This document shows, in pieces, positions 121 through 55,406 of a DNA stretch of 64,000 nt. The first letter of the stretch is position 1. Each line of letters opens with the position of its first letter. The DNA comes from a virus (lineage: Duplodnaviria; Caudoviricetes), in IMG/VR virus record IMGVR_UViG_3300045599_000040, positions 1 to 64,000 of that record; one strand, 5' to 3'. Position numbers and translations under genes: made by a program. The notes beneath the pieces are model-generated. The model searched no databases and was not told the origin of the DNA. It worked only from the letters and a program-made list of their open reading frames with translations.

Positions 121-516
121 GTGATTAAAATAGCACATCCTGAAATACATAGCCAAAACTCTGTAAAAAAGTTTGGTGGATCGGTAGAGGATTATCTTCC
201 GATTCACCAATGGTTTGATGATAGTAAAGCGTATATGGCGGATATGCGCCATAGAGCACTAAAGCACCATGCAGCAGGTATATTTGAATGTGAAAGAGTA
301 TTTGGAAAATCTTTTGTCAATTCAGAGGGTAAAACGGTTTATACAAGATACGTTGGTGAGCAGCATGTGTTGGAAGACTTGGGCTTTATTCCAACGCTAG
401 AAGATTGGTTTGAAAATATGGAGCTACAGAAGTGGATGATGAATAGTGATTCTAGAATTAGAAAAATAACAAAGGGAAATAAATTACCAAAGAGTTTAGA
501 AAATAAAAGTCAATAA
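121..516 (+). CDS. Conserved phage hypothetical protein (DUF6915-like)
   Basis: 131 aa; H-rich motifs HPEIHSQNSVKKFGG, IHQWFD, HRALKHH typical of this phage family. Confidence 0.6.
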   Translation: MIKIAHPEIHSQNSVKKFGGSVEDYLPIHQWFDDSKAYMADMRHRALKHHAAGIFECERVFGKSFVNSEGKTVYTRYVGEQHVLEDLGFIPTLEDWFENMELQKWMMNSDSRIRKITKGNKLPKSLENKSQ

Positions 517-558
517 ATCGATTGTTTTAAAATAAAAAATATAAAGAGGAGTATATAA

Positions 559-720
559 ATGAATAATACTGAAACTGTAACAATTTCAAAGGCTGAATAC
601 GAAAGATTGCTAAGAAACAGTGAGTTTCTAGGTTGTCTTGAAGCTTGTGGCGTAGATAATTGGGGTGGATATGGAGAAGCACAAGAAATGTTTGAAGAAG
701 AGGAGGGTAACGAGGAGTAA
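559..720 (+). CDS. Small phage hypothetical protein (53 aa, not in ORF track)
   Basis: RBS AGAGGAG, ATG at 559, MNNTETVTISKAEYERLL...GVDNWGGY, TAA at 718-720. Confidence 0.7.
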   Translation: MNNTETVTISKAEYERLLRNSEFLGCLEACGVDNWGGYGEAQEMFEEEEGNEE

Positions 721-721
721 T

Positions 722-996
722 ATGCCAAGATTAGAAGAGTGGTCATTAACTTTTGATGATAGCAATCCATATCAAGCACCTGAAAATTGCGAAGCTTATA
801 TTTGCAAGGGAAGGTTTATGAAAGAGATGGATTTGAAGATGGAGTGAATATTATTATCTCCAGCGCTAAAGAGTTAGATTTGCAAAACAACATTGCTAGA
901 ACCAGGAACTCTGAATACATATTAGGCAAGCTATCAGAGGAATACTTAAAGTGGCTTGATAGTAATGGATTGAAATTAAATGAGGTGATCGAATGA
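722..996 (+). pseudogene. Phage hypothetical gene split by a frameshift (or sequencing error) near 783-787
   Basis: MPRLEEWSL..NPYQAPE in one frame continues as LRSLYLQGKVYERDGFEDG in another frame across an A4 run. Confidence 0.55.
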
Positions 997-1559
997 GAAT
1001 TGATGTAATGGTAGATATTGAAACACTTGGTACAAATAAGGACTCCACCATTTTTCAAATTGCAGCAGCAACATTTGATGTTGAAACTGGAGAAATTTTT
1101 GAAGTCTATGAACAAGTAGCAGATATAGAAAAAAATAAGACTGTAAATGTAACTGGATCAACACTCAAATGGTGGTTGAAAACGAATAAAGAGCTACTTC
1201 AAGAAATATTAAATAAAGGGACTGAAGCTAGTGGAGTTATACTTATAGATTTTCATGGGTGGCTTCATAAATTGAAATTAAAGTATCAAGAAGTATGTTT
1301 ATGGGGCAACGGTATTCTTTTTGATAATGCACTTATTCAGGAACAGTTGAATGCAATGGGCTTTGATTATCCAATTTATTACAAGAATGACAGAGATGTA
1401 AGAACAATTGTTGATTTGGCAACTAAGAAGCTTGGTATCACAGAACAAGAATTAAAAGAAAAATTCAGTGATACATCGTTAGTTGAACATAACGCATTAG
1501 ATGATGTGAAATATCAAATTAATCTAGTGACGTATTGTTATAATGTGCTAATAAACTAA
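993..1559 (+). CDS. DEDDh 3'-5' exonuclease/exoribonuclease
   Basis: Motifs DVMVDIETLG, WGNGILFD, HNALDD. Confidence 0.85.
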   Translation: MRIDVMVDIETLGTNKDSTIFQIAAATFDVETGEIFEVYEQVADIEKNKTVNVTGSTLKWWLKTNKELLQEILNKGTEASGVILIDFHGWLHKLKLKYQEVCLWGNGILFDNALIQEQLNAMGFDYPIYYKNDRDVRTIVDLATKKLGITEQELKEKFSDTSLVEHNALDDVKYQINLVTYCYNVLIN

Positions 1560-1656
1560 AAAGAGAAAAATTAACCTTCGTTTTTCTCCTTTTATCTCCG
1601 TTTTTCAAGGCGAAAAATCCTTTAAAATTGTGATTTTAAAGTAAAATATATAAGTA

Positions 1657-1685
1657 TTGACATCCGATTGTTTAATGTGTAGTAT
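1657..1685 (+). promoter_or_regulatory. SigA-type promoter with extended -10, upstream of the replication operon
   Basis: TTGACA (1657-1662), 17-bp spacer ending in TG, TAGTAT (1680-1685). Confidence 0.75.
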
Positions 1686-1824
1686 TAGTAATGGATTCCT
1701 TTTTTAGTCTCGCTTGGCGAGTTTATATAGATATAAAATATTATAAAGAGGGTGATAAACTTAAAATAAATACATAGCAATTTAAAATTTCAGGGCTTAA
1801 CTATAAAAAAGGGGAGATATATTA

Positions 1825-2784
1825 ATGACACAAGAGCTTAGACAAGGATTAAATAAAATTGAAATTACAGGTGTATTGAAAGAAAGTAAGCTTAGCAGTG
1901 GGAAAAGCGATAATGGTAATTATATTAATGGTTCATTGGTTATTAAAGCAGGAGAATTTACAGAGTTAGAGCTAAAGGTCTTTGCCAACGAAAAAAACAA
2001 AGAGGGAAAAGTACGCAAAGTATATGAAACACTAAAACAAATTTTAGACAAAGAACTAGAAACACTTGCAGATGGAGTGCCTGAAGAGGAAGCAACAAAG
2101 GTAAGGGTTTGGGGAAATGAAGGATTCACTCCACAATTTCGTGAAGAAATGTATGTCACTGAAGCAAATCCAGATGAAGTTACAACTAGGATTTCATTAG
2201 ATTTAGGTTTCGGAAATGTAACGGTAGATGATCGTATTAAGCCTGAAGACTACAAAGCTACATTCGATGTTGAAATGTTTGTTGTAAAAATCCAAGATGA
2301 GATTAAAAACCATGAAGAGACAGGTCGAGTTATTATTAAGGGTTATGTTCCAGTTTATGGTGGCGAAGTAATTCCCTTGGAAGTGGTTGCTGGGGTTGTT
2401 GAAGATGAAGATGGTGAATTTGACTTTGCTGAGGAAATCAGAGGAAGTGTTCACGAAGGTAGCACGATCAATCTTTGGGGAAATATCGACTACAAAGCAA
2501 TTATTGTTAAAAAGTCAAAGGGCGGTAGCTTAGGGAGAGCAAAAGTTGAAGAGACTCGTACATATGTCAATGATCTAGTTGCAATTGGTGGAGATATTAT
2601 TGATGACGTAGATTTGGAAATTGACGAAGAATTGATTCGGCAAGCAGCCAAAGAACGTGAAAATAAAAAAGATGAAGTTTTACAAAAAAGCAAAGAAGAA
2701 AAGAAGAGTGGCAAAGGGAAAGGCAAAGGTAAAGGAATGAATTCCAAGGGGAAAACAAAGAGTAAAAGCGATATTCCGTTTTAA
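1825..2784 (+). CDS. SSB-like OB-fold protein (SPbeta YorF-like position)
   Basis: First gene of the replication block; acidic body, basic G/K tail and C-terminal DIPF typical of SSB tails. Confidence 0.6.
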   Translation: MTQELRQGLNKIEITGVLKESKLSSGKSDNGNYINGSLVIKAGEFTELELKVFANEKNKEGKVRKVYETLKQILDKELETLADGVPEEEATKVRVWGNEGFTPQFREEMYVTEANPDEVTTRISLDLGFGNVTVDDRIKPEDYKATFDVEMFVVKIQDEIKNHEETGRVIIKGYVPVYGGEVIPLEVVAGVVEDEDGEFDFAEEIRGSVHEGSTINLWGNIDYKAIIVKKSKGGSLGRAKVEETRTYVNDLVAIGGDIIDDVDLEIDEELIRQAAKERENKKDEVLQKSKEEKKSGKGKGKGKGMNSKGKTKSKSDIPF

Positions 2785-2854
2785 AATAAATATTAAATAT
2801 AAAATAAAATATATTGTTACAATATTTTTCTTACTAAGCTAAAAGACAGGGAGA

Positions 2855-3895
2855 GTGATATTGGTGTCAATTTCAGACAGTTTAAAAGGATTGTTAGCTG
2901 AAACATTTCAAGAACGAGCAAAGGTAAGTCGAATTTCCCCAGATTTACGAGGGAAAACGATTGTGCTATATGGCGGCAATAACGTGGGAAAAACTACTCA
3001 AGCGTCTAAATTCAAAAATCCTATTTTCATGCCTTTTGAGAAGGGGATGAATGCCACTTCTGGAGCTGTTGTACTTGAAAATACAAATTGGGCAGATGTA
3101 AAAAGAAATATCAAAACACTATCTGGTCGTAAGTGGAAAGAGCTTTTGAAAAAGGAACAAATTACTGTAATATGGGATGGCTTTGAACGAGCAGGTTTTT
3201 ATTGTCAACGCTATATCGAAAGTAAGTACGATGCGTTTGATATTGCTGATGCACGGAATGGATTTGGGGCTTGGCAGCAATATGAAAAGGAAATTTGGAC
3301 AGAGATTGATAAACTACTTTCAATTGGCTATACAGTAGTCTTTATTGGTCATGAAGAAGTAAACAAGAAGAAAGGCGATAAGATATTCCCTAAAGGTGAT
3401 AGTAGAACTGTATCCCCTATTGTGGATAATGCTGACATTGTTGTATATATAGAATCAAATGGAGTGGATGAGGATGGTAACGTAATACCGTCTTCGGGAT
3501 ATATGTATGAGACAGATGATTTTTTCGGGCGTTCTCGTTTTCACTACGTAAATCCAGTCTTAGAGCATTTTACAGCAGAAAATCTTGAGGAAGCTATCAT
3601 AGAAGGCATCAAGAAGCAGCTTGAGATCGATGGAGTAGAAGGTGTTGATTTCGATGAGCAGCAGCAAATTTATAATAAATCCGAAGAGGTTACATATGAA
3701 TCGTTACTAACGGACATTCATGAGCTTTATACTGCCTTAAAAGAATTGGAAGATCTTGAGTTTTACGAGGAAGCAGTCTCTAAGCATTTGGGAGAAGGTG
3801 TACGAGTTAGCGAAGCAACTAAACGACAAATTGAACCATTGATTTGTATCAAAGACGAGCTAACTGATCGGCTCGAAGAATTAGAAGAGGGGTAA
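2855..3895 (+). CDS. AAA ATPase, Sak4/AAA_24-like (YorG-like)
   Basis: Walker A GGNNVGKTT; IGHEE motif; synteny. Confidence 0.75.
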   Translation: MILVSISDSLKGLLAETFQERAKVSRISPDLRGKTIVLYGGNNVGKTTQASKFKNPIFMPFEKGMNATSGAVVLENTNWADVKRNIKTLSGRKWKELLKKEQITVIWDGFERAGFYCQRYIESKYDAFDIADARNGFGAWQQYEKEIWTEIDKLLSIGYTVVFIGHEEVNKKKGDKIFPKGDSRTVSPIVDNADIVVYIESNGVDEDGNVIPSSGYMYETDDFFGRSRFHYVNPVLEHFTAENLEEAIIEGIKKQLEIDGVEGVDFDEQQQIYNKSEEVTYESLLTDIHELYTALKELEDLEFYEEAVSKHLGEGVRVSEATKRQIEPLICIKDELTDRLEELEEG

Positions 3896-3920
3896 ATTAA
3901 ATAATTTTTTAAATTATTTA

Positions 3921-3957
3921 AACGCAGGAGAGAAGTAACATTCTCTCCCGTTGTTTA
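3921..3957 (+). terminator. Probable intrinsic terminator
   Basis: Stem GGAGAGAA/TTCTCTCC with 6-nt loop, followed by TTGTTT. Confidence 0.55.
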
Positions 3958-10383: not shown

Positions 10384-10894
10384 AAATATTGGGGTTTGAT
10401 GGTGAACCTTGCTCAAGGGTGTGTAGCTTAATTGCTATGCTAACGGTATCAGTTAAATAAGGCATTAGCACGAATACACTGACTAAGAGAGCCTACGGTC
10501 TATTTTAAAACATAGATAGCAGGTAATACCGTGCCAAGTCTTTTCCTTGTTCCTAGTTAATTACAAATTATGAAAGGAGGGAATAAGTAGTACGAGGTGA
10601 AAACTCAAATAGAACCAGTGGGTTTTATATATATGACAATTAATAAAATAAGGTCATGCTGGACTGAATAAAGCTATTAAAAATGGTACATTATACAAAA
10701 ATTATTATTGGAACAAGGAAAAGAAAGGTGTAGAGACTATTTGAAAACACAGCAATTGTGCGAGTAAAAGTAGGGATGGAGATAAGCACCATCCCGAAGC
10801 GCCATCACTACTTATGTTTTCATAAGTGGAAGAGATAGTCCAATCCGACTTCTTTAAGGAGTGTTAAAGTATCCCGAAAGGGACGGTAGAAATG
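10384..10894 (+). mobile_element. Group I intron in dnaE (511 nt) with a degenerate homing-endonuclease remnant
   Basis: 5' exon ends in T, intron ends in G, and splicing restores PDIDID in frame; P1 CCCU/GGGG, P3 GATGGTG/CGCCATC, P7 GACTA/TAGTC, AAGGTGTAGAGACTA and AAGAGATAGTCC core motifs. Confidence 0.88.
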
Positions 10895-16355: not shown

Positions 16356-16578
16356 AAAATCATATAAAATATTACTTTTATCTATATTAAATCGAGGTGA
16401 GAAAATGAGTTCTATTGCACGAGATGTACAATTCTACACTGAAGTAGATATTGATGGTGTTAAACGTGAGATTTTAGTGTCAATTAAAAAAGCAAAACTT
16501 GAAGAAAAAACAGGTGTTTTTCAACTGAAGCCGATTTGTGTAGATGATATATATTATGAAAAAATTATTATTAAGTAA
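16348..16578 (+). CDS. Hypothetical protein (true start probably the internal ATG after GAGGTG)
   Basis: ORF track; RBS near 16394. Confidence 0.5.
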   Translation: MSRKSYKILLLSILNRGEKMSSIARDVQFYTEVDIDGVKREILVSIKKAKLEEKTGVFQLKPICVDDIYYEKIIIK

Positions 16579-16624
16579 AAAATTTATAAAACAATCCTTT
16601 TAACTGGATACAGGAGGTGAAAAT

Positions 16625-16795
16625 ATGTTTGGTGTTGACATTGGTGAAATTGTTGATGAGTTAACAAGGCGAATTGAGAACTTGGAGCGTATTCAAAAGA
16701 AGAAAAATATTGAATATAGAGAGGATGATTTGCTTCAAGGAAAAATCATGGCATTAGAGGAATTTCGTGCCTGGTTGTCTATTGAGTATTTATAA
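16625..16795 (+). CDS. Small hypothetical protein (56 aa, not in ORF track)
   Basis: RBS GGAGGTG; MFGVDIGEIVDELTRR...; stop codon is the start of a boundary palindrome. Confidence 0.7.
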   Translation: MFGVDIGEIVDELTRRIENLERIQKKKNIEYREDDLLQGKIMALEEFRAWLSIEYL

Positions 16796-16821
16796 AACAG
16801 AATTTTATAAGGAGGGATAAA

Positions 16822-17271
16822 TTGATCTTTTTAACAATTGTTTTTATTGCATACTATCTGATTGTACTTGTTAAAGGTAGTTTTTTATCAGATTTAATTA
16901 TTAAAGCTGGTGAAGATGAAATTAAGAGGGTAGAGACAGGATCAAAAAATGTTGACGAGTCCACTTATAAATTAGCTGCTACAGGATGCTTTTTCATTGT
17001 ATTGTTGGTCTTAGAGCTTATTTACTTAGTTCTTGCTATTAGCCACGATATTTATAAGTATCCTACATTGATATTAATTCTATATGTTATTTTAACTTTT
17101 GCTTTTACCAAGTGGGGAAGAAAAAAAGACCTAACTACTGATGATGGTAGAAATGCATATCGAAAACAACTCTACCAAAAAAATAAACGATATTCGTTTA
17201 AAGGTTTTATGATTCGACTTTTGTTTCTTACATATTTTTGCTACATGTTTTATATTCTAGTGTTTCAATAA
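16822..17271 (+). CDS. Membrane protein
   Basis: Several hydrophobic segments; RBS GGAGG. Confidence 0.7.
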   Translation: MIFLTIVFIAYYLIVLVKGSFLSDLIIKAGEDEIKRVETGSKNVDESTYKLAATGCFFIVLLVLELIYLVLAISHDIYKYPTLILILYVILTFAFTKWGRKKDLTTDDGRNAYRKQLYQKNKRYSFKGFMIRLLFLTYFCYMFYILVFQ

Positions 17272-17309
17272 AACAAATCCCTTTAAACTGACTGAGGGGA
17301 GGTGGAAAG

Positions 17310-17921: not shown

Positions 17922-17939
17922 TTAAAACAGTAATTTTAA

Positions 17940-18515: not shown

Positions 18516-18629
18516 ATCATCTCTATTTTTCTCTATTTTCCTTCTATTTACTTCGTTTTTTAAGGTTAAGAATCCATTAAAAGAGGGATTTTAAAACGAA
18601 ATATAAAAGAATGGAGAGGATATGTCGTA

Positions 18630-23601: not shown

Positions 23602-24642
23602 TAAAATATAGGGCGTTAATAAATTAATATTAACGATAACACTTTCGAATTGCTGGGAACCCCTAACGTAAAGTCGAGGGCGATCAGCAGCCAAGACTTA
23701 CCAGTATAACTTATAAATAAAAAAAACAAGGAAGGAGGGATTTTGTGTGGGGGAAATGCATTAGTTTTCCCAAGCTAGAAGTGACAAGGGACGGAAGAGT
23801 AAGAGCATGGCATAACTCTTGGAAAAGATATGTAGAAAAGAAACCAAGATACGATAAGGATGGATATAAAATAATTTCTACAAGACGTGATGATGGAAGA
23901 TCAACGACAGTTAGAGTCCATCGATTGATAGCGGAAGCTTATATACCCAATCCAGAAAATAAACCAGTGGTAAATCATAAAAATGGAATAAAGGATGACA
24001 ATCAAGTAGAAAACTTAGAGTGGGTTACTGTTTCTGAAAACACACAACATGGTTACGATGTTTTAGGAAACATATCAGCAAAATCTCAAAGAATGCTATT
24101 ATATATTGATGAAAAACCTTTTTCGACTTATGATTCAATAAATAAGGCTTGCAAAATAATAGGAATTGATCGGGGTGCTCTAGATTTTTTAGTAAAAATG
24201 TCTGAAAGATATATTTCATATAAAAAAGTGAAAGAAAATTTTCAGGCAGTTTCCCATAACAAAGAAATATGGGAATCAAGGATAACTTTAAATATTCGTG
24301 GTAAATTTTATAAGATTGGGAATAAGTATTACGACAAGATAAAAGATATTGCAAAGGATTATGGTAAAGAGAGAAGTACAATACACAGATGGATTAATAA
24401 AAGTCATCCAAAAGGAATTCAAATAGAAATCATAAGTTGCAAAGAGTTTTTAAAAAATAAAATAAAAAATACTGGTGAGTAAGGTTCAACGACTATCCCG
24501 TTGCGGGGAGTACACTCAAGCGAGTGGAAGCGGAAGTGGTCTTACATAAAGTAAGATGTGATATAGTCTGCTCTTTATGGAAACATAAAGCAGTTCATAA
24601 GAGAACGCACACAGAAGTAGCGAGCTGTGTGGAACACAAAGG
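23602..24642 (+). mobile_element. Group I intron (IA2-like) in nrdA, encoding an HNH endonuclease
   Basis: Exon ends in T, intron ends in G, splicing gives AIAP-TTSSAFILG; core AATTGCTGGGAA, ATCAGCAGCC, AAGGTTCAACGACTA, GATATAGTCTG. Confidence 0.92.
23745..24482 (+). CDS. Intron-encoded HNH homing endonuclease (I-HmuI-like)
   Basis: VHRLIAEAYIPNPENKPVVNHKNGIKDDNQVENLEW. Confidence 0.9.
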   Translation: MWGKCISFPKLEVTRDGRVRAWHNSWKRYVEKKPRYDKDGYKIISTRRDDGRSTTVRVHRLIAEAYIPNPENKPVVNHKNGIKDDNQVENLEWVTVSENTQHGYDVLGNISAKSQRMLLYIDEKPFSTYDSINKACKIIGIDRGALDFLVKMSERYISYKKVKENFQAVSHNKEIWESRITLNIRGKFYKIGNKYYDKIKDIAKDYGKERSTIHRWINKSHPKGIQIEIISCKEFLKNKIKNTGE

Positions 24643-25116
24643 ACAACAAGTTCAGCATTCATCTTAGGCCAAGTGTCACAAAGTATTGAGCCTATTTGGT
24701 CTAATACCTATGTAAAAGACGTTGCGAAAATGAAGGTGACGATTCGCAATCCATACTTACAAGAGGTTTTAAAATCATATGGCAAGGATACACGAGAAAT
24801 TTGGAATAGTATCCGTGATCATGACGGCTCTGTGCAACATCTAGACTTCTTGACCGAGCATGAAAAAGAAGTATTCAAGACATTTAGTGAAATTGACCAA
24901 TATGTAATTTTAGATCAAGCTTCAACTCGCCAACAATTTTTGGATCAGAGTCAATCACTAAATCTTATGATTAATCCTACAATGTCTGCGAAAGAAATTA
25001 ATGAATTATATCTATTTGCTTGGGAAAGCAACATTAAAACTTTGTACTATCAACACAGCACAAATGCGGCACAGCAATTTAGCAAAGACAAGTTGTGTAC
25101 TGTATGTGAGGCATAA
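24643..25116 (+). CDS. nrdA: Class I RNR alpha subunit, exon 2
   Basis: SQSIEP, DQSQSLN, KTLYY, C-terminal CTVCEA; spliced product about 558 aa. Confidence 0.9.
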   Translation, partial: TTSSAFILGQVSQSIEPIWSNTYVKDVAKMKVTIRNPYLQEVLKSYGKDTREIWNSIRDHDGSVQHLDFLTEHEKEVFKTFSEIDQYVILDQASTRQQFLDQSQSLNLMINPTMSAKEINELYLFAWESNIKTLYYQHSTNAAQQFSKDKLCTVCEA

Positions 25117-25213: not shown

Positions 25214-25244
25214 TAAAATACCAATAAAAGGGGAGTTTTAACGG

Positions 25245-25802
25245 ATGTTTAAAGTTGAAGATCGAGTTTTTATTAAAGGACTTAATAAAAAAGGTGTAGT
25301 GAAAGAAGTTGATATTAAAGAAAACAAATCCAAGGTTACACATTTTAATCAATCTGATCAAAGAATTACAGCATGGTTTGATAATAACCAACTGAGGAAG
25401 TATTTGAAACCAAAAGATAATAAGTATTACCATATGGTATATGAGTTTCATAAAGCATTTGACCATCCTACATCAACTAAACCGACTCGATTAACTAAAG
25501 AAAAAAAGAAAAGCCATATTGATTGGATGCTTGAAGAATTGAATGAATATAAAAATGCTAACACTCTTGTTGATGAAGTTGATGCCTTAATTGATCTTCA
25601 ATACTTTCTGACTGGAACCTTTGTTTTACATGGAGTAAAACCAGATAGAATTTTTGAAATCGTACATAATGCGAATATGAGCAAATTATGGGAAGATGGC
25701 AAACCCAGATATAGAGAAGAAGATGGCAAAGTAATCAAACCACCATCTTGGCAAAATCCAGAGCCTTTAATTGCAAAAGAAATTGAGAATCAAAGCAGAT
25801 AA
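25245..25802 (+). CDS. MazG-like/all-alpha NTP pyrophosphohydrolase (dUTPase-like) with N-terminal extension
   Basis: EELNEY, DALIDLQY, VHNANMSKL..DGK...DGKVIKP. Confidence 0.8.
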   Translation: MFKVEDRVFIKGLNKKGVVKEVDIKENKSKVTHFNQSDQRITAWFDNNQLRKYLKPKDNKYYHMVYEFHKAFDHPTSTKPTRLTKEKKKSHIDWMLEELNEYKNANTLVDEVDALIDLQYFLTGTFVLHGVKPDRIFEIVHNANMSKLWEDGKPRYREEDGKVIKPPSWQNPEPLIAKEIENQSR

Positions 25803-28120: not shown

Positions 28121-28211
28121 TAGGACGCGATTATTAAGATGAGATTTTCCGATAAAACACTTGTTTTAACTGATTTGCTACTCATCATAAATTAACAGGG
28201 GGAGATGGAGA

Positions 28212-34181: not shown

Positions 34182-34215
34182 TAAAACAACTATTTTAAAT
34201 GAAAGGAGATTAATT

Positions 34216-36068: not shown

Positions 36069-36596
36069 GTGTACAAAGGTTGGATAAAAAGTAGTTTAGC
36101 ATTTCAAAAAACTATCGGGTTTTCTTATCAGGGCAAGCATCACCGCAGAAATAAATATTATAAATTCTTCAATGTCGAAGTGACAGATGACCAATACCTA
36201 GAAATGAAAAGTAAGTGGAAACATTTCAAGGAAGATATTCAATGGGATCTTCGTAAAAAGGTTGATGAGGCTTTTGGGATTAAAGAAGGAGATTTGACTG
36301 CCTCGATCTTAAATGGTAAAAGGTATTTTTTTAATAGGTATAGCAATTTAAATTATACTAGTAAGCTTCGTGAATGGACAAAAAACAATGGTCTTTATGT
36401 ATACAATAGAGAAAAGTATATTTATGAAGGTTATATAGCGCTTAAGGCACACATTGCACAGGATGGCAGCACTTGTTCGGAACATGAACAATATATTGAA
36501 AAGTTAACAAGAAGATGTGATTTTGATGAAAGTGATATTGATACTTATATAGATGATTTGTTAATTATAAAAAATAAATTGAAGGAATTTAAATAA
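36069..36596 (+). CDS. Hypothetical protein
   Basis: ORF track; stop codon overlaps a boundary palindrome. Confidence 0.6.
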   Translation: MYKGWIKSSLAFQKTIGFSYQGKHHRRNKYYKFFNVEVTDDQYLEMKSKWKHFKEDIQWDLRKKVDEAFGIKEGDLTASILNGKRYFFNRYSNLNYTSKLREWTKNNGLYVYNREKYIYEGYIALKAHIAQDGSTCSEHEQYIEKLTRRCDFDESDIDTYIDDLLIIKNKLKEFK

Positions 36597-36631
36597 GATT
36601 ACGATTTTAAACTGAAAGGATTTGTTCTTGA

Positions 36632-36847
36632 ATGGTTCTATATGCAATTAAAGTGTGCTACGGAGAGTATGAAGGTTATTTAAGCAGTTGGTGGAATCCA
36701 ACAAAAGATCTTAATGATGCAATGATCTTTATTGGCTTAAACGAAGCAAAAGAAATGTTAATTCGATATTCAGATACCTTTGATTATGAATCCACACCAA
36801 AGATAGATTTAGTTAAATGGGATGTAAAAGAAACTATAATAAGATAA
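36632..36847 (+). CDS. Hypothetical protein
   Basis: Flanked by boundary palindromes. Confidence 0.6.
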   Translation: MVLYAIKVCYGEYEGYLSSWWNPTKDLNDAMIFIGLNEAKEMLIRYSDTFDYESTPKIDLVKWDVKETIIR

Positions 36848-36879
36848 TATTATCATTTTAAGAGGAGGTGGGATGATAT

Positions 36880-37089
36880 ATGATTAAAACTCTAATTTCT
36901 AAATTGTATCACAAATATGTGTGTAAGCCTGATTTTGATCCGCATCAAACTTTGGAACATTTTCTGGAAATAGCCAAGGAGGAATATGAACTTCGCAAAT
37001 ATTCCACTATAGACACCTTTGAGAAATTGCAACTTATACAAAAAGCTGCTTTAATCAACTGGAAAATGAAAAACTGGGGAAGAAGATAA
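36880..37089 (+). CDS. Hypothetical protein
   Basis: RBS GGAGGTG; flanked by boundary palindromes. Confidence 0.6.
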   Translation: MIKTLISKLYHKYVCKPDFDPHQTLEHFLEIAKEEYELRKYSTIDTFEKLQLIQKAALINWKMKNWGRR

Positions 37090-37137
37090 AACCTTCGTTT
37101 TAACTGGTTTATAGAAATCAAATATAATATAATAGAG

Positions 37138-38412
37138 GTGAAATATAAAATGTCTATACTTCAATTAAAATCATCAAATCCTGAATTCTCATACATTATT
37201 AAAAAGAACCCAAACTCAGGAATGATTATTAAATCAATCCGCAAAGGTCATGCCTTCGGTTGGTATTCAAACGATGATACATACAACATCTATTTTAAAG
37301 ATGCAGAAAACGACATTTCATACAAAGAAGATAAAGATCAGCAATTTGAATACTTAAATGTATCAAGATATAACACCCCGTTATTTCCTTTGAATGCAAT
37401 ATCCGAGTTTTTAAAGTCAACATTAAACGAGCAAACTGAGCAAGATCAGAATGGTTATCTGAATGTCTTAACCGTGAACATGCTTCATATTGAACTGGTA
37501 AGGTACATTGATTTTTTTAAAAAGCATTACCCAGACTACAACTTTGAAACAAAACACTTAGCACATAAAAGCTATACCTTGACTATTTCAACAAATCAAT
37601 CTGTGTATAAGCTTCTAAATGTTGCAAGCTCATTGTTTATTTTCTTAGCTATGTTTGGCAAGGAGTATCTAGATGTATCCGACAATTTAATTGCAAAATA
37701 CATTCAATGTATTAATGTAACAGATGCTCCTTATTATATTCGCAGCCTATTCGTTAGAAACTTCCTATCAACAAAAGCAAGACTCAATAAGTTTAAAAAT
37801 GAGATTGAAGCTACAAACAAATACAAAATAGACTTTGAATTTGGAAATACAGCACAGCAACGTAGAAACTATATAGAAAAAATCATTTCATTTAACAAAC
37901 CTATTATTGATATTGGATGTGGCGAAGGCTTTTACATGTTTCCTTTTTCAAAAAGAATCAAAGATCACGAGTACCATGCAATTGACACCAATAAAGAAAT
38001 TGTTGAAATTCTAGAAGCAAAAATTAAGGCCAGAAACATAAAGAATGTTCTAACACATAAATCAGTTGAAGATTTTTTAGAGTCTTACCAAGAGGAACTT
38101 TCTGATGTAATTCTTACAGAGGTAGTTGAACATTTAGAGTTAGATGAGGCTAAAAAACTAATTAAAAAAGTTTATGACAACATAAACTTTGACAAGTTTA
38201 TTATCACAACACCGAATTTTGATTTCAATAAGTTCTACGATATTGACATCAGACATGATGACCACAAATGGGAAATGACATCTGCTGAATTCAAGGGTTG
38301 GATCTTGACTATGTTTCAAAACGATACTTGCAAATTGGACTTCTTTGGTATTGGAGATAGGGTAAATGGTATTCAAACAACTCAAGGAGTAATAATTAGA
38401 AAAGAGGGTTAG
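37138..38412 (+). CDS. hen1: Hen1 RNA 2'-O-methyltransferase with N-terminal ligase-activating domain
   Basis: N-terminal FSYIIKKNP; C-terminal DIGCGEG, EVVEHL, ITTPN, RHDDHKWEMT..EF. Confidence 0.88.
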   Translation: MKYKMSILQLKSSNPEFSYIIKKNPNSGMIIKSIRKGHAFGWYSNDDTYNIYFKDAENDISYKEDKDQQFEYLNVSRYNTPLFPLNAISEFLKSTLNEQTEQDQNGYLNVLTVNMLHIELVRYIDFFKKHYPDYNFETKHLAHKSYTLTISTNQSVYKLLNVASSLFIFLAMFGKEYLDVSDNLIAKYIQCINVTDAPYYIRSLFVRNFLSTKARLNKFKNEIEATNKYKIDFEFGNTAQQRRNYIEKIISFNKPIIDIGCGEGFYMFPFSKRIKDHEYHAIDTNKEIVEILEAKIKARNIKNVLTHKSVEDFLESYQEELSDVILTEVVEHLELDEAKKLIKKVYDNINFDKFIITTPNFDFNKFYDIDIRHDDHKWEMTSAEFKGWILTMFQNDTCKLDFFGIGDRVNGIQTTQGVIIRKEG

Positions 38413-38416
38413 GTTA

Positions 38417-40999
38417 ATGGAGATAAAAATTAAAGTACATACAATTTTTCTAATGGTGGGGGCAACTGAATCTGGCAAAACCACATTTGCAAAAGAAGTT
38501 CTTATTCCACAGTTGCGATTTAGTGATATAAATAAAAATTATATTTCTAATGTTCAATATATCTCATCTGATGAGATTAGGCAGGATATCCTTGGTTATA
38601 AATATGATAAACATGATCGAGTTATGCTTGAGTCAAGTGAACATGCATTTAATCTTCTTTTTGAAAAACTTAGAGCTGCAACATCTTTTCCCATCAATGC
38701 AGAGTTTGTTATTGTCGATACAACGGGGCTATCTGAAGAGTTCAGAAACAAAGTAATCCAAATTGCCAAAGAGAATCATTATAATATTGAATGTGTCTTG
38801 TTTGACTATAAGGATAGGAATGATTATTTCACCACTGAAACATCCAAAGCACTGATCAGTAATCATTTGACAAGACTGAGAAAAGAAGTAGTTGCGGATA
38901 TAACGAGAAAAAAATACAGCCAAATTCATAAAATTAGAAACAAGAATTTCTACGATCCAGTTAGCGGAAAAGCAAATTCTGAATATAAGGTCATTGTTGA
39001 AAACATGGGAGAGTATTTGAATCATATTCTTCCTACCCATAATAAGTATATTGCAATAGGCGATATTCATGAAAAAGTTGAGGAATTAAAATCTTTATTA
39101 ATCCAACATGGATTTAATATAGACAATAACAAACTAGAGCATAGCGATAAACGATATAGGATAATTCTTGTTGGCGATTATATTGATAAAGGCCATAATA
39201 CGAAAGAGACAATTGATTTTATTTATAACAACAAAGAATGGTTTTATATTGTACTAGGTAACCATGAAAACTTTGTATACAAATATATTAATGGCGAAAT
39301 ATCTAAAACAGAAGCATCGGTAATGAAATATTTTGACTCAATAAATGCCATCCAAGCAGATAAAGAACTAAAAGATAAATTTTTTGAACTTGTTAATATA
39401 TCTAAAAATTTTTACAGGCACATTGGAACACAAACGCCATCATTTTACGTAACACATGCCCCTGTTCAAAACAAATACCTTGGCAAGATTGACAACGTTT
39501 CACAGAGAAATCAAAGGAGATTTGCCATTGATAGAGATAAACCAGTTGAAGGGCAACTTCAGTTCTTAGTTGATGAAGCTGTATCAAATAATCCATTTCA
39601 TGTATTTGGACATGTGGCAGTTAAAGGAATTGCTCGAATAAAAAATAAGATCAACATTGATACTGGATGTGTTCATGGAAACTATCTCTCGTCCGTAACT
39701 CTAGACTCATGGAAACCTTTTTACAGAAAGCAAAAAACATCAGGGTTTTATATTGAGGAAGATTTGCCGCTACTGTTCCAAAAAGAAGAGAATGTTTCAT
39801 TGAACGATCTAAGCGATGACAACAAGAGAAGGTTAAGATATGCTCTTAAAAATAAAATCAACTTCATTTCAGGTACAATGTCTCCATCTGATAAAGATGT
39901 TGAATCGAATGACCTAGAATCATTAAAGAGTGGGCTAATGTATTACAAAAACAAGGGAGTGGACAGCGTAGTTCTACAACCAAAGTACATGGGGTCGCGC
40001 TGCAATATTTATCTGGATAGAAATATTGCAGAGTGCTTTGCTGTTAGCAGAAATGGATATAAGATAAAACAGGTTGATTTGACTCAAGTTTATGAAAAAT
40101 TACTTCAAAAATTTAGCCACTACATGAAAACTAATAATATCAAAACCTTTGTACTGGATGGAGAACTTCTTCCTTGGAGTATTTTAGGAAAGGGATTGAT
40201 TGAAAGGCAGTTTAGAACAATAGGTGTTGCATTAGAAACAGAGCTAAGTTTTTTAAAGCAGAATGATTTTGAAAATCAATTTCTAAGCTTGGTTGAGAAT
40301 TATAACAATAGCGGATTTGAAAAGGATAGCTTTAGCACATCCAACAGTGAACTGAGTAAAAAATACGGGAATACGAACTACCAAAATTATAAAAACGTAA
40401 AAGACATCGTAAACATTTATACTTCAGTAAGTGATCATTATGAAGCCTATCAAAATTATAAAAAGCAAGTTGAGCTATACGGCTTTGAAGGAGAGGCAAC
40501 ATATAAACCCTTCTCAATTCTGAAAGAAATTTATAATGATGGGAGCGAAAAGGTTCCCAACGAAAAAACATCTGAAATTTTTAATCTGGTCTCAGATGAT
40601 GATTCTCTTTTGATTGATTTTAATAAGAATCCAAAATTTTATGAAGAAGCTTTGCAATTCTATAACAATGTCACAACTGAGAAGAAGATGGAAGGTGTAG
40701 TTATCAAACCAGAAATAATGGTGGATGGAGTTGCTCCATATCTAAAGGTGCGTAATCCTAATTACCTAATAATAGTATATGGATACGACTATAAATTTCC
40801 TCATAAGTATGAGAAACTGATGGAACAAAAAAATATCAGAGGAAAGCTTGAAACATCGATCAAAGAATATAAGCTAGGAGAAAAGATGTTGTCATTCTGC
40901 TTGGATAGTATAGATGTTAACAACAAGGATTATATGCAGGTTGTAGCAAATATGCTTTTTGAAGTAGAGAAAGAAAGAGATATTGATCCAAGGCTGTAG
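38417..40999 (+). CDS. pnkp: Pnkp: polynucleotide kinase - phosphoesterase - RNA ligase
   Basis: GATESGKTT; GDIH, GDYIDKG, GNHE, FGH; ligase motifs QPKYMGSR, DGEL, EGVVIKP, KVR. Confidence 0.9.
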   Translation: MEIKIKVHTIFLMVGATESGKTTFAKEVLIPQLRFSDINKNYISNVQYISSDEIRQDILGYKYDKHDRVMLESSEHAFNLLFEKLRAATSFPINAEFVIVDTTGLSEEFRNKVIQIAKENHYNIECVLFDYKDRNDYFTTETSKALISNHLTRLRKEVVADITRKKYSQIHKIRNKNFYDPVSGKANSEYKVIVENMGEYLNHILPTHNKYIAIGDIHEKVEELKSLLIQHGFNIDNNKLEHSDKRYRIILVGDYIDKGHNTKETIDFIYNNKEWFYIVLGNHENFVYKYINGEISKTEASVMKYFDSINAIQADKELKDKFFELVNISKNFYRHIGTQTPSFYVTHAPVQNKYLGKIDNVSQRNQRRFAIDRDKPVEGQLQFLVDEAVSNNPFHVFGHVAVKGIARIKNKINIDTGCVHGNYLSSVTLDSWKPFYRKQKTSGFYIEEDLPLLFQKEENVSLNDLSDDNKRRLRYALKNKINFISGTMSPSDKDVESNDLESLKSGLMYYKNKGVDSVVLQPKYMGSRCNIYLDRNIAECFAVSRNGYKIKQVDLTQVYEKLLQKFSHYMKTNNIKTFVLDGELLPWSILGKGLIERQFRTIGVALETELSFLKQNDFENQFLSLVENYNNSGFEKDSFSTSNSELSKKYGNTNYQNYKNVKDIVNIYTSVSDHYEAYQNYKKQVELYGFEGEATYKPFSILKEIYNDGSEKVPNEKTSEIFNLVSDDDSLLIDFNKNPKFYEEALQFYNNVTTEKKMEGVVIKPEIMVDGVAPYLKVRNPNYLIIVYGYDYKFPHKYEKLMEQKNIRGKLETSIKEYKLGEKMLSFCLDSIDVNNKDYMQVVANMLFEVEKERDIDPRL

Positions 41000-42852: not shown

Positions 42853-42891
42853 ACTAAATAAAATAATTCTTTTAACGGAAGGAGAAGTAAA

Positions 42892-47061: not shown

Positions 47062-47325
47062 ATGAGTGAAGGTATATATTATATGGTGAAAATGTACAGG
47101 TTAAAATGCATAAAAGAGCTAGACTCCTTTTTCAAAGAGGAATGTACATATTACGGACGAAAATCAAAGTCAGGAATGATCATGGCAAAAGATGAATTCG
47201 ATAAGTGGTGGATAATCGAAGATTATAAAATGCACACGTACAATATATTAAACAACCATTTTATAATCTTCGATGAATTTTTTGTGCGAAATCATAAGGA
47301 AGCAATCGGCTATAAATCACAATAA
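47062..47325 (+). CDS. Hypothetical protein
   Basis: ORF track. Confidence 0.5.
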   Translation: MSEGIYYMVKMYRLKCIKELDSFFKEECTYYGRKSKSGMIMAKDEFDKWWIIEDYKMHTYNILNNHFIIFDEFFVRNHKEAIGYKSQ

Positions 47326-47359
47326 ATGAGATATTTTAAAGGAACTGAGGAGTGAGTAC

Positions 47360-47842: not shown

Positions 47843-47893
47843 ATGAAACCCGATAAAAACATACTTTTAAAAAGTCAACGGGAGGTGTGAGTC

Positions 47894-48509: not shown

Positions 48510-48713
48510 GTGGGTTTGAATAGAATGGATTTTCATACAATTGAAGGTTATGCCGAAACAATATCAAATGGAATACTGGGTAATTTAAATACGAAGCTAA
48601 TAGCTAAAGAAAACATAATGAATTTAATTGGTTTATCATGCTTGAATTACTCACATAATGAGAAATTCAAAAAAGAAATGGATGCTTATTTGGCGCTAAA
48701 AGGCTTTTTATAA
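48510..48713 (+). CDS. Hypothetical protein
   Basis: ORF track. Confidence 0.45.
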   Translation: MGLNRMDFHTIEGYAETISNGILGNLNTKLIAKENIMNLIGLSCLNYSHNEKFKKEMDAYLALKGFL

Positions 48714-48751
48714 AATACCAATTTTAAAACAACTAGGGAGGATGCATTTAT

Positions 48752-51586: not shown

Positions 51587-51649
51587 GGGTTTAGTATGTA
51601 TAAAGGTTAAAAAGCCTTATGTATCAAGGCTTTGAAGCCTAGTTGATAT

Positions 51650-51697
51650 TGGTTCGTTCATAGATAACTCACGGAAGTGTAGTCAGTAAACGAACCA
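51650..51697. other. Candidate attP (48-bp imperfect inverted repeat, central GG)
   Basis: TGGTTCGTT...AACGAACCA arms directly downstream of the integrase, nested in a 16-bp outer inverted repeat. Confidence 0.5.
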
Positions 51698-51774
51698 TAT
51701 AGACTGTACTAAACCCCTAAAGGTTTGCTAATATAAATAGTACAATTCTAAAGAGAGGATACCTAAATTAAAAC

Positions 51775-52473: not shown

Positions 52474-52489
52474 TTGCAGGAGGTGTCTT
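52453..52489. terminator. Hairpin at the convergence of the two arms
   Basis: AAGACACCTCCT/AGGAGGTGTCTT stem. Confidence 0.6.
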
Positions 52490-52501
52490 AGTAATAATAA
52501 C

Positions 52502-52756
52502 TTAGAGGCAGAAATCGTTTATATCATGTATTCGTTTTTGAACATACCGCGCTTTTACTCTTGCTTCTTCTTTTCTTTCCTTGCCAGATACTTCATCAAA
52601 CATCATTCTAATTAATACCTCTTGCTCTTTGACCAAGTCACTAAGTAAATATGTGTTGTCAATTCTTTTCTTAAATTCCTCGCTCAACTCAACTTTATCA
52701 TACATTTTTCCACTGCTCTCCAAATTCATTTTTAAACGACTTGAGAGCAGATTCAA
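52502..52756 (-). CDS. Hypothetical protein, last gene of the late arm
   Basis: ORF track. Confidence 0.45.
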   Translation of the reverse strand: MNLLSSRLKMNLESSGKMYDKVELSEEFKKRIDNTYLLSDLVKEQEVLIRMMFDEVSGKERKEEARVKARYVQKRIHDINDFCL

Positions 52757-53060
52757 TCAATAATTTGATTTCGTTTTCATTCAGTTTAATTTTATTTTGC
52801 ACAGCAAGACTTACTAGTGCCTCAACTGCTTTATTGTACTTATCTTCACCGTTATAATCTTTGTACACTTGTTGAATAAACAACACTGCAATTTTAGCTA
52901 ATTTTTGTTTATTTTCGAGTTCTTGCTTAATCCTTTCCAATTTCTCAATACCAACCTTTTCCTTCAAAAAACTAAAGGTCAATGTCCCTAAAGCACCCAT
53001 ACCAACAATGATCAGCGAGTAAATAACATTAAGCAACATATCCATAATTTCTTGATTCAT
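52698..53060 (-). CDS. Holin, LL-H family-like
   Basis: N-terminal TM; AVLFIQQVY...KYNKAV...LIESAL. Confidence 0.75.
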   Translation of the reverse strand: MNQEIMDMLLNVIYSLIIVGMGALGTLTFSFLKEKVGIEKLERIKQELENKQKLAKIAVLFIQQVYKDYNGEDKYNKAVEALVSLAVQNKIKLNENEIKLLIESALKSFKNEFGEQWKNV

Positions 53061-53079
53061 TCAGAAACACTCCTTTTAT

Positions 53080-53352
53080 TTATTTTCTTTCTTTTGTTTG
53101 CTTGTAAGCTTGGTGAAAAAATACTGCTAAACCGCCAGCAAGAATACCTTGAATAAACGCTTCAGCTGTTAGTCCCAGCAATAGAAAAGATAGGATTGTC
53201 CCTATTCCTGGCAGAATCCATACAATGAGCCAATCAGCAATTTTAGGAGACTTTTTTATGAATAATCCAATTAGCATTAATGCCACAACAACAGGCATCA
53301 TCTGCTCTAATAAATATTGCTGGATTAACTCAGCAACAATTGTAGCTTCCAT
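53080..53352 (-). CDS. Holin (3-TM phage holin family)
   Basis: IGLFIKK...ADWLIVWIL; AFIQGILAGGLAVFFHQAYKQ. Confidence 0.8.
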   Translation of the reverse strand: MEATIVAELIQQYLLEQMMPVVVALMLIGLFIKKSPKIADWLIVWILPGIGTILSFLLLGLTAEAFIQGILAGGLAVFFHQAYKQTKERK

Positions 53353-53356
53353 CTAT

Positions 53357-54751
53357 TTATTCCTCCTTTACGATTGGTGAATAACCTTTCATTTTTAATT
53401 CTTCAGCTAATTTTTCTGCATTTTCTCGAATGGAAAAAGCTCCAACTTGTACGCGATACAACACACTCTCTTTAGGCTTAGGATTGTCACCGACTGACTC
53501 AGGTGGTGAATATTTGTAGCCCAATTCTTCAGTTATCACTTTAACTACGGCCTCAGCATAGGTCTTCCAGTTGTTTATTAAGTTGACCATATCTTCGTTG
53601 TTATCTATGAAAGCATATTCAATGATTGTAGTATCAACCTTCCCTGTATCGCGGTGCATGTAATAGTAGTCTTTTCCATTAGCCCCTTGTCGTGAGAAGG
53701 CTCTACGTTTGTACTGACCAGCAGCAACAATAGCGTCTAAAAGCTTATTAGCCAATTTACCATCGCTAAATATACTGTAAATCGTTTCTACCCCACGCCC
53801 ACCACCTGCATTAATATGATTGGAGATACAATACTTGGCTCCACTTTTTTTAATAATTGCTGTACGAGTAGTGGAATCAAGACTGATATCTGAATCACGG
53901 GTTAATGCAACAGGAACTCCTAATTGTTTAAAACGTTCGTATTGGTAAAGGCTAATTACTAATGTAAAATCCTTTTCTCTAAAACCATCAAAAGTTGCAC
54001 CAGGATCTGTTCCCCCATGTCCAGCATCAATTACTAATTTTGGCTTATTTGTTACTGGAACTTCTTCTTTTGGTGTATTGTCAATTGGTTTTTCATTTTC
54101 ATTTTTCAGCCAAATAGCAATTGCATTGGAAATTTTTCTTCTTTCAGGTTGAGTGTTAACACGTTGTCCTTTTACTAAGCAAAGAGAACTGCCGCCACCA
54201 TCAAATCCTAAAAAGTGAGTGACACCATGCTTCTTTGCTTCTGTAATCATTTCTGGATAAGTCATTTTCTTACTAGAATCTGTAACGAATATTTGATACT
54301 CCAATGTCTTCTCGTTTAAGCCAAAGGCTGTCCTCATATGCCTTCCATTTACTATTCCCTTATCTAACTGATTGCCTATAAATTGAGGAAGGAGAAGGGG
54401 AGAGGACTCAATTGCCCAATCATAGTCTTTTGCCACTTCAGAAAATGATTTATCTACTGTTTTAAAATGAATTGAATCACCTTTGCCACATAGAGCGAAA
54501 CCATACTTAACAGCACTTTTATCACGAATAATCGAACCATAGGATTTCGCTGCTCCAAGAGTCCAACCATCGACAAAATTAAAAAAACCTGCATTAAATA
54601 TAATGTCAGGTTTAGAGGATAAGCGATTATACATTTCTTCTAAGGTTTCACCTTTGCCACGGCACATAATTAGTTGTGTATCTTTAATTTCATTTTTATT
54701 AAAACGGACTATATTTAACCCATTAGCTTTATCAGTTTTCATTTTAATCAA
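53357..54751 (-). CDS. Endolysin: phosphodiester glycosidase (NAGPA-like) + Amidase_3 + SPOR
   Basis: FNAGFF, RHMRTAFG, FDGGGSS; IDAGHGGTDPGA, SNHINAGG, IEYAF; YRVQVGAFS..NAE. Confidence 0.85.
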   Translation of the reverse strand: MIKMKTDKANGLNIVRFNKNEIKDTQLIMCRGKGETLEEMYNRLSSKPDIIFNAGFFNFVDGWTLGAAKSYGSIIRDKSAVKYGFALCGKGDSIHFKTVDKSFSEVAKDYDWAIESSPLLLPQFIGNQLDKGIVNGRHMRTAFGLNEKTLEYQIFVTDSSKKMTYPEMITEAKKHGVTHFLGFDGGGSSLCLVKGQRVNTQPERRKISNAIAIWLKNENEKPIDNTPKEEVPVTNKPKLVIDAGHGGTDPGATFDGFREKDFTLVISLYQYERFKQLGVPVALTRDSDISLDSTTRTAIIKKSGAKYCISNHINAGGGRGVETIYSIFSDGKLANKLLDAIVAAGQYKRRAFSRQGANGKDYYYMHRDTGKVDTTIIEYAFIDNNEDMVNLINNWKTYAEAVVKVITEELGYKYSPPESVGDNPKPKESVLYRVQVGAFSIRENAEKLAEELKMKGYSPIVKEE

Positions 54752-54773
54752 CTCCTTCTAAAAATGGTAAAAG

Positions 54774-55193
54774 CTATTGTATTAAAAGTTTTATACCTTC
54801 TTGAGCAGGAACGCCAATTAACGCACCTATCAATAAAAGAAAGGCAATCCAAAGGTACTTTTTGTCATTAGAGTCAGAGTTTCGTTGAACCAAATTATTT
54901 GATTTATTTTCGTTATTTTTATTTTTATTAATGTCATATCTCAATGTTTGAACTTCTTTGCTAATCCCATCTAGTTTTTCATCTTGTTTGTCCATTCGCT
55001 TATCTCTCATATTTGAACGTTCTTCTTGTTGTTCCATAAGAGTTGTCATTTTTACAATTGCTTCTCGAATTACTGTAATATTCTCACTGTCCTTTTCAGC
55101 TTTATCTTTTATTTTTTCAACATCTTTTTCTAGCTTTTCAATTTTTACATTGAGTACTTCTAAAGGTGGGGTAGAGGACACATCTATACACAA
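54774..55193 (-). CDS. XhlA-like coiled-coil plus C-terminal TM lysis-associated protein
   Basis: Long coiled coil then YLWIAFLLLIGALIGV; first gene of the lysis cassette. Confidence 0.6.
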   Translation of the reverse strand: MCIDVSSTPPLEVLNVKIEKLEKDVEKIKDKAEKDSENITVIREAIVKMTTLMEQQEERSNMRDKRMDKQDEKLDGISKEVQTLRYDINKNKNNENKSNNLVQRNSDSNDKKYLWIAFLLLIGALIGVPAQEGIKLLIQ

Positions 55194-55208
55194 CCCTTCT
55201 TGAAATTT

Positions 55209-55233
55209 AAAAAGAGAGGAATTTCCTCTCTTT
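55209..55233 (-). terminator. Terminator-like hairpin just before the lysis cassette
   Basis: AAAGAGAGGA/TCCTCTCTTT stem; T5 on the minus strand. Confidence 0.6.
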
Positions 55234-55234
55234 C

Positions 55235-55281
55235 ATACTATATATAGATATTTATTACATTAAAAACACAATATATAGTGT
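55235..55281. promoter_or_regulatory. Tandem NrdR-box-like sites
   Basis: ATACTATATATAGATA (55235) and a perfect-consensus ACACAATATATAGTGT (55266), 31 bp apart. Confidence 0.65.
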
Positions 55282-55406
55282 AAAAAATCCATTAAAATGG
55301 CTCTTTTAACTGGAAAAAATCTACTTGTAATCTAATATACCTATCCCCTACCAAGATTTAATAAGTAGGGTAGAGGAGGGGATAGGTAGGGGAGAAGCTA
55401 TTAAAA

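Follow-up and report, generated by a model that had tools for sequence, protein, structure and literature searches.

Short recombination sites that delimit accessory genes are known from the pdif/dif modules of Acinetobacter plasmids, in which many Xer-type sites with a 6-bp spacer separate the modules (PMC13141974, PMC6449649) and in which recombination between sites of an 11-6-11 layout has been shown experimentally where the 6-bp spacers match completely or almost completely (PMC13141974). Here we describe a palindrome, TAAAA-N6-TTTTA (hereafter the motif), in a 64,000-nucleotide stretch of viral DNA (hereafter the window: bases 1-64000 of the 72,157-bp contig of IMG/VR record IMGVR_UViG_3300045599_000040, with a CheckV completeness of about 44%) and in phages related to Bacillus phage SPbeta, and we argue, with moderate confidence, that its copies are protein-recognised, address-specific crossover joints with a geometry like that of Xer/dif sites. 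As with pdif, related replicons hold different modules between the same sites, but the two systems differ in several respects. The pdif sites are plasmid-borne and served by the XerC and XerD enzymes of the host, their arms are asymmetric (XerC and XerD halves, ...ATAA-N6-TTAT...), their modules alternate in orientation, and their spacers recur within one plasmid, which leads to inversions and deletions. The motif, in contrast, has symmetric arms (TAAAA/TTTTA), a centre that is unique within each genome and a fixed order along a large phage replicon, and its enzyme is a candidate only. In XerH/difH, XerA/dif and XerS/difSL, one tyrosine recombinase works on a nearly palindromic site whose central region is short, and the motif has the core-site geometry of the Xer/dif class, namely two inverted arms and a fixed 6-bp centre; however, these enzymes resolve dimers at one site per chromosome, whereas the motif occupies gene junctions at 13-51 sites per phage genome. 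In cassette exchange with heterospecific lox or FRT sites, the sites share their arms and differ in their spacers, only sites with matching spacers recombine, and DNA flanked by two unlike sites can be exchanged rather than lost. The motif likewise joins common arms to differing centres, which would bar self-deletion and allow exchange, but the lox and FRT systems are engineered and use 13-bp arms and 8-bp spacers, whereas the arrangement described here would be natural and genome-wide.

Two phage elements also invite comparison. The PeSL (early promoter stem-loop) elements of phage T4 are repeated intergenic elements of plastic regions that lie at the borders of inserted, deleted or replaced open reading frames (ORFs), and modular shuffling has been proposed for them (PMC2839356, PMC4122927). 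A PeSL, however, is about 100 bp long, comprises a strong promoter and a terminator hairpin, and recombines through homology between different copies, with the formation of mini-circles, whereas the motif spans 16-28 bp, lacks both a promoter and a stable hairpin, and has only 5+5 bases common to its copies. The SPbeta repeated element (SPBRE) is likewise repeated, intergenic and bound by a protein with a tyrosine-recombinase fold (PMC10516654), but it has another, non-palindromic sequence and about ten copies, which lie in promoter regions.

The motif is a genuine DNA site whose occurrence is far from random and which is conserved phylogenetically. A first-pass annotation, made from the letters of the window alone, had reported 11 exact copies of TAAAA-N6-TTTTAA, all of them intergenic, and had estimated that fewer than one would occur by chance. 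The abundance was confirmed and the number was not, as we found 12 copies of this form on the plus strand, against 0.94 (maximum 4) in dinucleotide shuffles of the whole window, and 13 exact copies of the 16-mer TAAAA-N6-TTTTA, the additional one being at 16365. All 13 lie within the 6,804 bp of intergenic DNA and none in the approximately 57 kb of coding DNA. The annotation had named a lack of enrichment over shuffled intergenic sequence as the result that would speak against it; when each intergenic segment was shuffled separately, the mean was 0.16 copies and the maximum 2 in 2000 trials. The spacing is strict, since N6 gives 13 copies while the other spacings from N3 to N10 give 0-4 and a backwards control gives 2, and TAAAA came first (13 versus 1.8) when the 1,024 possible 5-mer arms were scanned without bias. 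Six near-exact copies had also been claimed; four of them are intergenic copies with one mismatch, and the other two diverge further, one having 5 bp between its arms and the other a damaged right arm. In the window the inner arms do not vary and the outer arm bases are weakly conserved, AATCC(A/T)T and ACTG(G/A) recur in the flanks in agreement with the annotation, and the six-base centre is different in every copy, so that neighbours never share one. Repeated or palindromic centres were not seen within genomes, where about 2-4 would be expected, a depletion that is not significant. The combination of conserved arms, a free centre and rigid spacing points to the recognition of duplex DNA by a symmetric protein.

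Most copies occupy short gaps, 30-60 bp in length, that separate a stop codon from the ribosome-binding site (RBS) of the following gene. Several statements of the annotation about this placement proved accurate: the leading TAA of the motif is the stop codon of the upstream ORF in eight copies (514, 16793, 17269, 36594, 36845, 37087, 47323 and 48711), an RBS and a start codon follow 17-25 nt downstream of most copies, and runs of copies bracket single small ORFs, as those at 36632-36847 and 36880-37089 each have copies at both ends. The accessory genes of the window run in a single direction throughout, and the eight asymmetric exact copies all carry TTTTAA when read along transcription. Four exact copies are symmetric (TTAAAA...TTTTAA), among them that at 55293, which had been given a plus-strand polarity; its outer flanks are alike on both sides, and no polarity can be assigned to it. 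The copies in the window are the following.

514 to 530, plus strand: copy with one mismatch; its TAA is the stop codon of ORF 367-516
1623 to 1639, no strand assigned: exact, symmetric, centre TTGTGA; extended flank AATCCTT; in a 265-bp gap ahead of the replication module, with a T-rich terminator-like stretch before it and a TTGACA box after it
16365 to 16380, plus strand: exact 16-mer (TTTTAT end), centre TATTAC; stop codon 9 nt before, next start 24 nt after
16587 to 16603, plus strand: exact, centre CAATCC; flanked by two ORFs of 56-57 aa; right flank CTGG
16793 to 16809, plus strand: degenerate, 5-bp spacing; its TAA is the stop codon of ORF 16625-16795
17269 to 17285, plus strand: degenerate, right arm damaged; its TAA is the stop codon of ORF 16822-17271
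17923 to 17939, no strand assigned: exact, symmetric, centre CAGTAA; stop codon 1 nt before, next start 22 nt after
18578 to 18594, no strand assigned: exact, symmetric, centre GAGGGA; extended flank AATCCAT; in a long intergenic gap
25225 to 25241, plus strand: exact, centre GGGGAG; downstream of the last ribonucleotide-reductase exon
28153 to 28169, plus strand: exact, centre CACTTG
34182 to 34198, plus strand: exact, centre CAACTA; directly after a terminator hairpin with a 13-bp stem
36594 to 36610, plus strand: copy with one mismatch; its TAA is the stop codon of ORF 36069-36596
36845 to 36861, plus strand: copy with one mismatch; its TAA is the stop codon of ORF 36632-36847
37087 to 37103, plus strand: exact, centre CCTTCG; its TAA is the stop codon of ORF 36880-37089; the ORFs of 37150-40999 come next
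42859 to 42875, plus strand: exact, centre TAATTC
47323 to 47339, plus strand: copy with one mismatch; its TAA is the stop codon of ORF 47083-47325
47854 to 47870, plus strand: exact, centre ACATAC
48711 to 48727, plus strand: exact, centre TACCAA; its TAA is the stop codon of ORF 48516-48713
55293 to 55309, no strand assigned: exact, symmetric, centre TGGCTC; extended flank AATCCAT; in the gap that separates the tail genes from the lysis genes, both leftward

The gene order of the window is SPbeta-like, with a replication module resembling yorF to yorL, ribonucleotide reductase genes, an SprA-like serine integrase and leftward lysis and tail genes, and its proteins are only about 30-45% identical to those of SPbeta; the closest relatives of the window phage are metagenomic viral contigs and a Tissierellia metagenome-assembled genome. 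Across this family the motif is enriched 10-30 times in SPbeta, phi3T, SPR, BUCT083, Mammaliicoccus phi6255, Lactobacillus phage Lenus and metagenomic relatives. Copies of TAAAA-N6-TTTTA and of the backwards control per genome or contig were as follows.

SPbeta: motif 34, control 2
phi3T: motif 30, control 2
SPR: motif 35, control 0
BUCT083: motif 34, control 1
Mammaliicoccus phi6255: motif 36, control 3
Viral contig G001: motif 30, control 1
Viral contig G002: motif 51, control 5
Viral contig G004: motif 9, control 0
Lactobacillus phage Lenus: motif 18, control 0
Geobacillus phage GR1: motif 8, control 1

Enrichment was absent in viral contig G003, Staphylococcus phage SEP9 and Enterocloster phage CB457P2. 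TAAAA was also the top-ranked arm in phages from several host genera. In SPbeta the arms extend symmetrically to TYTnnA-TAAAA-N6-TTTTA-TnnARA, which is the 11-6-11 layout of Xer/dif sites. In the literature that we searched for the motif sequence and for repeats in SPbeta, the motif is not described. Lenus (NC_047897, 79 kb) has little in common with SPbeta except the replication helicase, and it gives a weak tyrosine-recombinase match; its copies may indicate a system that reaches well beyond the classical SPbeta-like prophages.

Indirect but strong evidence for crossovers at the motif came from comparing phages of the SPbeta family. We compared four Bacillus phages (SPbeta with phi3T, SPR and BUCT083; six genome pairs), and the edges of homology blocks fell at the edges of the motif. 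Within 20 bp of a copy we found 23 of 192 edges, against about 2 expected, and they pile up at offset 0/-2, where homology begins at the left arm, or at +16/+17, where it stops at the right arm. Gene boundaries that bear the motif coincide with an edge in 20 of 27 cases, compared with 51 of 193 other boundaries (Fisher p = 2e-6), a difference confounded by the concentration of the motif in variable regions. Identical 16-mers are common to the genomes of each pair in numbers (21-24 per pair) far above the approximately 0.4 expected by chance, and their order is perfectly collinear in 6/6 pairs. As a control we also counted every short, isolated exact match between the genomes, but the result was too noisy for use.

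The sequence on either side of these identical 16-mers is often replaced. When the 150-bp flanks were compared by gapped alignment, with the 99th percentile of random alignments as threshold, the 135 cross-genome pairs of copies with the same 16-mer were distributed between both flanks homologous (49), left only (27), right only (27) and neither (32), so that one or both flanks were unrelated in 86 of the 135. The address with centre AGACTG, for example, has four upstream sequences in the four phages, and downstream sequences that are of three kinds by clustering and four by eye. The neighbours are of more than one kind at 24 of the 36 addresses found in two or more genomes, and at 12 they vary on both sides. 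As the same centre is kept while the flanks differ, the centre would be a position-specific address and the replaced DNA would end at the motif; the pattern of flank replacement thus suggests that crossovers occur at or within the site, between copies with the same centre, as is the rule for tyrosine recombinases.

We propose that each copy is a double-stranded DNA site bound by a two-fold symmetric protein, which would recognise the inverted TAAAA arms, and to a lesser degree the outer bases, exactly 6 bp apart. In a cell that contains two related phages, or a phage together with a prophage, joints with matching centres would be the points of exchange, and whole genes or blocks would be swapped with their reading frames intact and the gene order unchanged. 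Since the centres within a genome are all different, joints of the same genome would not recombine with one another and the phage would not delete its own genes. The arms additionally provide the TAA stop codon of eight upstream genes. The copies of the window phage presumably work as those of the Bacillus phages do. The enzyme would most likely be an Xer-like tyrosine recombinase of the YopP family, encoded in the missing part of the window phage genome; the pattern would be no different if an Xer enzyme of the host were responsible, or if a site-specific cut were repaired through short homology. More tentatively, we consider it possible that SPbeta-like phages, the window phage and SPbeta itself among them, perform a natural, genome-wide form of recombinase-mediated cassette exchange, in which a YopP-family enzyme acts only on sites with the same 6-bp address and in which a fixed framework of joints, common to a population of related phages, allows accessory, defence and counter-defence genes to be swapped freely.

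YopP belongs to the core gene set of SPbeta-like phages, and its function is unassigned (PMC10516654; bioRxiv 10.1101/2021.11.22.469490). The protein has Phage_integrase and SAM-like domains, its best solved relatives are XerA, XerD and XerH, and its homologues, which we found in phi3T, G001 and phi6255, retain the Arg, His-x-x-Arg/Lys, His/Trp and Tyr positions. Among the motif-rich relatives, SPbeta and phi3T carry YopP, and G001, G002 and phi6255 gave tyrosine-recombinase matches. Integration in these phages is carried out by a serine recombinase, which leaves YopP free for another role.

Several observations weigh against this interpretation. YopP is our prime candidate for the protein acting on the joints, but the link, drawn from sequence comparison, is circumstantial: in SPbeta and phi6255 a Lys stands at the position expected for the second catalytic Arg, and SEP9 and CB457P2 have weak Phage_integrase matches while the motif is not enriched in them, so the co-occurrence is imperfect. 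A search of the 72-kb contig, itself 44% complete, gave no match to a tyrosine recombinase (PF00589). With the helicase, the ribonucleotide reductase, a 746-aa protein and the 860-aa product of ORF 38417-40999 as queries, the genome, viral and metagenome collections yielded no close relative that shares centres with the window, and the best relative has 86% amino-acid identity in ribonucleotide reductase; centres in common occur at chance level. The association of the motif with genes that lack homologues is a trend only in the window (16/17 versus 52/71, p = 0.10), and the 16.1-21.0 kb block that differs from G001 does not have exact copies at its bounds. In laboratory hybrids of phi3Ts and SPbeta, crossovers lie within identical stretches of 1.4-18 kb and cannot be placed, and one crossover fell in a 39-bp interval without a motif, which indicates that ordinary homologous recombination operates too. 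Finally, the comparative pattern fits a dedicated recombinase, a site-specific cut and short-homology repair at a conserved island of 16-20 bp alike.

A different explanation, which we regard as rather unlikely, is that the copies are regulatory operator sites, at which a phage dimer such as an Xre-type repressor or an L5-like roadblock protein silences or punctuates accessory transcription, and that recombination is a by-product of rare short-homology events followed by selection for intact genes. Stoperators of the cluster A mycobacteriophages, bound by the immunity repressor (L5 gp71), are comparable: dozens of these short sites lie genome-wide in small intergenic gaps, often over stop codons, and the motif is also short, intergenic, overlapping with stop codons and spread through the genome. 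Stoperators, however, are asymmetric 13-14-bp sites with a single consensus and without a free centre, and to our knowledge they do not mark the boundaries of exchange; regarding orientation, the asymmetric window copies do follow transcription, as noted above, whereas the oriented logos of SPbeta and G002 are symmetric. Palindromes with half-sites one helical turn apart are typical of operators, and the exclusively intergenic position of the motif would also be expected of them; three long-gap copies adjoin promoter- or terminator-like sequence, and one SPbeta copy abuts the SPBRE of the aimR promoter. Nevertheless, recognition of the arms alone leaves unexplained why centres are identical and collinear while both neighbours change, and the common islands measure just 16-20 bp, which is short for homologous recombination. 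Most gaps are, moreover, too small for a promoter, and promoter-like sites in the window number 79, against 88.6 in shuffles, a count by which we also rejected a sigma-70 promoter array. The T4 PeSL do provide an example of regulatory cassettes that double as recombination sites (PMC2839356), but the master repressor MrpR binds another element, its peaks in chromatin affinity precipitation with sequencing (ChAP-seq) being the ten SPBRE promoter regions (PMC10516654). The annotation had suggested an operator array and had pointed to the known repeated element of SPbeta; as put forward this is not supported, and identity with SPBRE is wrong. The element that we derived from the ten MrpR-bound SPbeta promoters, ...ACAAATACAAATAATATGTATA, is non-palindromic and unrelated, and a test against the 15-bp SPBRE consensus found under the ChAP-seq peaks, with ...CAAATAATATGTATA as the motif of the same ten promoters, showed no relation to TAAAA-N6-TTTTA (PMC10516654).

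Crossover joints also account for the data better than the remaining explanations, each of which is far less probable. An intercistronic RNA hairpin for processing, stability or translational control, which we consider very unlikely, would suit copies that lie between a stop codon and the next RBS and that are, when asymmetric, oriented with transcription in the window. Its 5-bp A-U stem would be unstable, however, and the six junctions folded gave z from -0.65 to +1.5 relative to shuffled sequence, with the motif paired to itself in just 2/6 minimum-energy folds. Beyond the arms, covariation is absent among 128 copies from four genomes, the conserved "stem" and free "loop" are the reverse of what is known from protein-bound RNA hairpins, there is no Rfam match, and fixed centres amid swapped genes would be left unexplained. 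The annotation had also offered a cassette reading; in the tyrosine-recombinase version of this idea the geometry of arms and 6-bp core held and crossovers at the motif are strongly supported in the SPbeta family, while the cognate gene was not found in the contig. It was right in spirit and wrong as an integron, that is, as an array in which each gene and its palindrome form a cassette that is excised as a circle and reinserted, in the manner of attC. The run at 36594, 36845 and 37087, which brackets single small ORFs with a site after each stop codon as attC would be, is what makes such an array conceivable, but we hold it to be highly improbable. The same 128 copies show no folded-hairpin covariation, with complementarity outside the 5-bp arms at chance; attC sites are much longer than the 16-28 bp of the motif; an integrase, an attI site and a common promoter are not nearby, there being no tyrosine recombinase on the contig; and excision between neighbours is not expected, since these never share a centre. 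The order of addresses is, besides, fixed in the Bacillus phages, unlike that of freely reshuffled cassettes, and the pattern is one of same-address exchange between phages. The composition of AT-rich intergenic DNA, in which eight copies begin with a TAA stop codon, has a practically negligible chance of having produced the motif, given the 13 copies found against the 0.16 of shuffled intergenic DNA, an enrichment restricted to the 6-bp spacing, and the first rank of the motif in phages of several host genera.

Two other known signals were considered and rejected. The ComK box has the form AAAA-N5-TTTT, and N5 spacing is not enriched. The YonO late promoter or terminator is unlikely, as the single mapped start, upstream of yonK, is about 3 kb from the nearest motif (PMC5467207); this start was placed at about 60 kb of the SPbeta record by a rough conversion of coordinates. 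Copies of the motif are also present inside the SPbeta late operon, which counts against a YonO signal.

How phage mosaics come to have breakpoints exactly at gene boundaries has long been asked, and the usual explanations are random illegitimate recombination with subsequent selection, or homology between regulatory elements that the genomes share. If true, addressed crossovers by a dedicated system would add a third mechanism, and one directly testable in the genetically tractable pair of SPbeta and phi3T. Such a system would account for the conserved but unassigned YopP, an Xer-like recombinase, show how temperate phages of very large size can exchange accessory genes while keeping gene order, and provide engineering with naturally occurring recombination sites that are mutually exclusive. 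In practical terms, the accessory region of the window can be divided into its natural units at the palindromes.

Some further observations concern individual copies and their surroundings. In the copy at 25225, the centre GGGGAG appears to double as the RBS of ORF 25245-25802, whose start codon lies 4 nt past the 16-mer, which suggests that the centre of a joint can carry a second function; G001 and G004 have a copy at the equivalent place, with a different centre. On the leftward strand, adjoining the copy at 55293, the sequence ACACTATATATTGTGT (55235-55281) resembles an NrdR box, and its location between the tail and lysis genes is odd for a regulator of the reductase. Long gaps also occur in the window at 10431-10892, inside a split DnaE-like polymerase, and at 23604-23745 and 24482-24730, between ribonucleotide-reductase ORFs. 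The stretches at about 23647-23699 and 24559-24607 are 92-94% identical to Staphylococcus phage sequences annotated as group I introns; an Rfam scan of the whole window, these intron-like stretches included, gave no family at the gathering score.

In the laboratory hybrids Hyb1-Hyb3, identical phi3Ts/SPbeta stretches start or stop 2-7 bp from a motif copy; the stretch at 104630-106035 in Hyb2, for example, has copies at 104632 and 106012. In SPbeta itself (AF020713), the region 76171-76215 includes a motif copy that closely follows a terminator stem-loop and directly precedes the SPBRE of the aimR promoter, an arrangement that shows that the SPBRE and the motif can adjoin. A second intergenic repeat, roughly AGAATAAAAATAAAAT, occurs many times in SPbeta and phi3T, sometimes directly 3′ of a motif copy, and examples of it are found around 113677 and 120655 of the SPbeta record.

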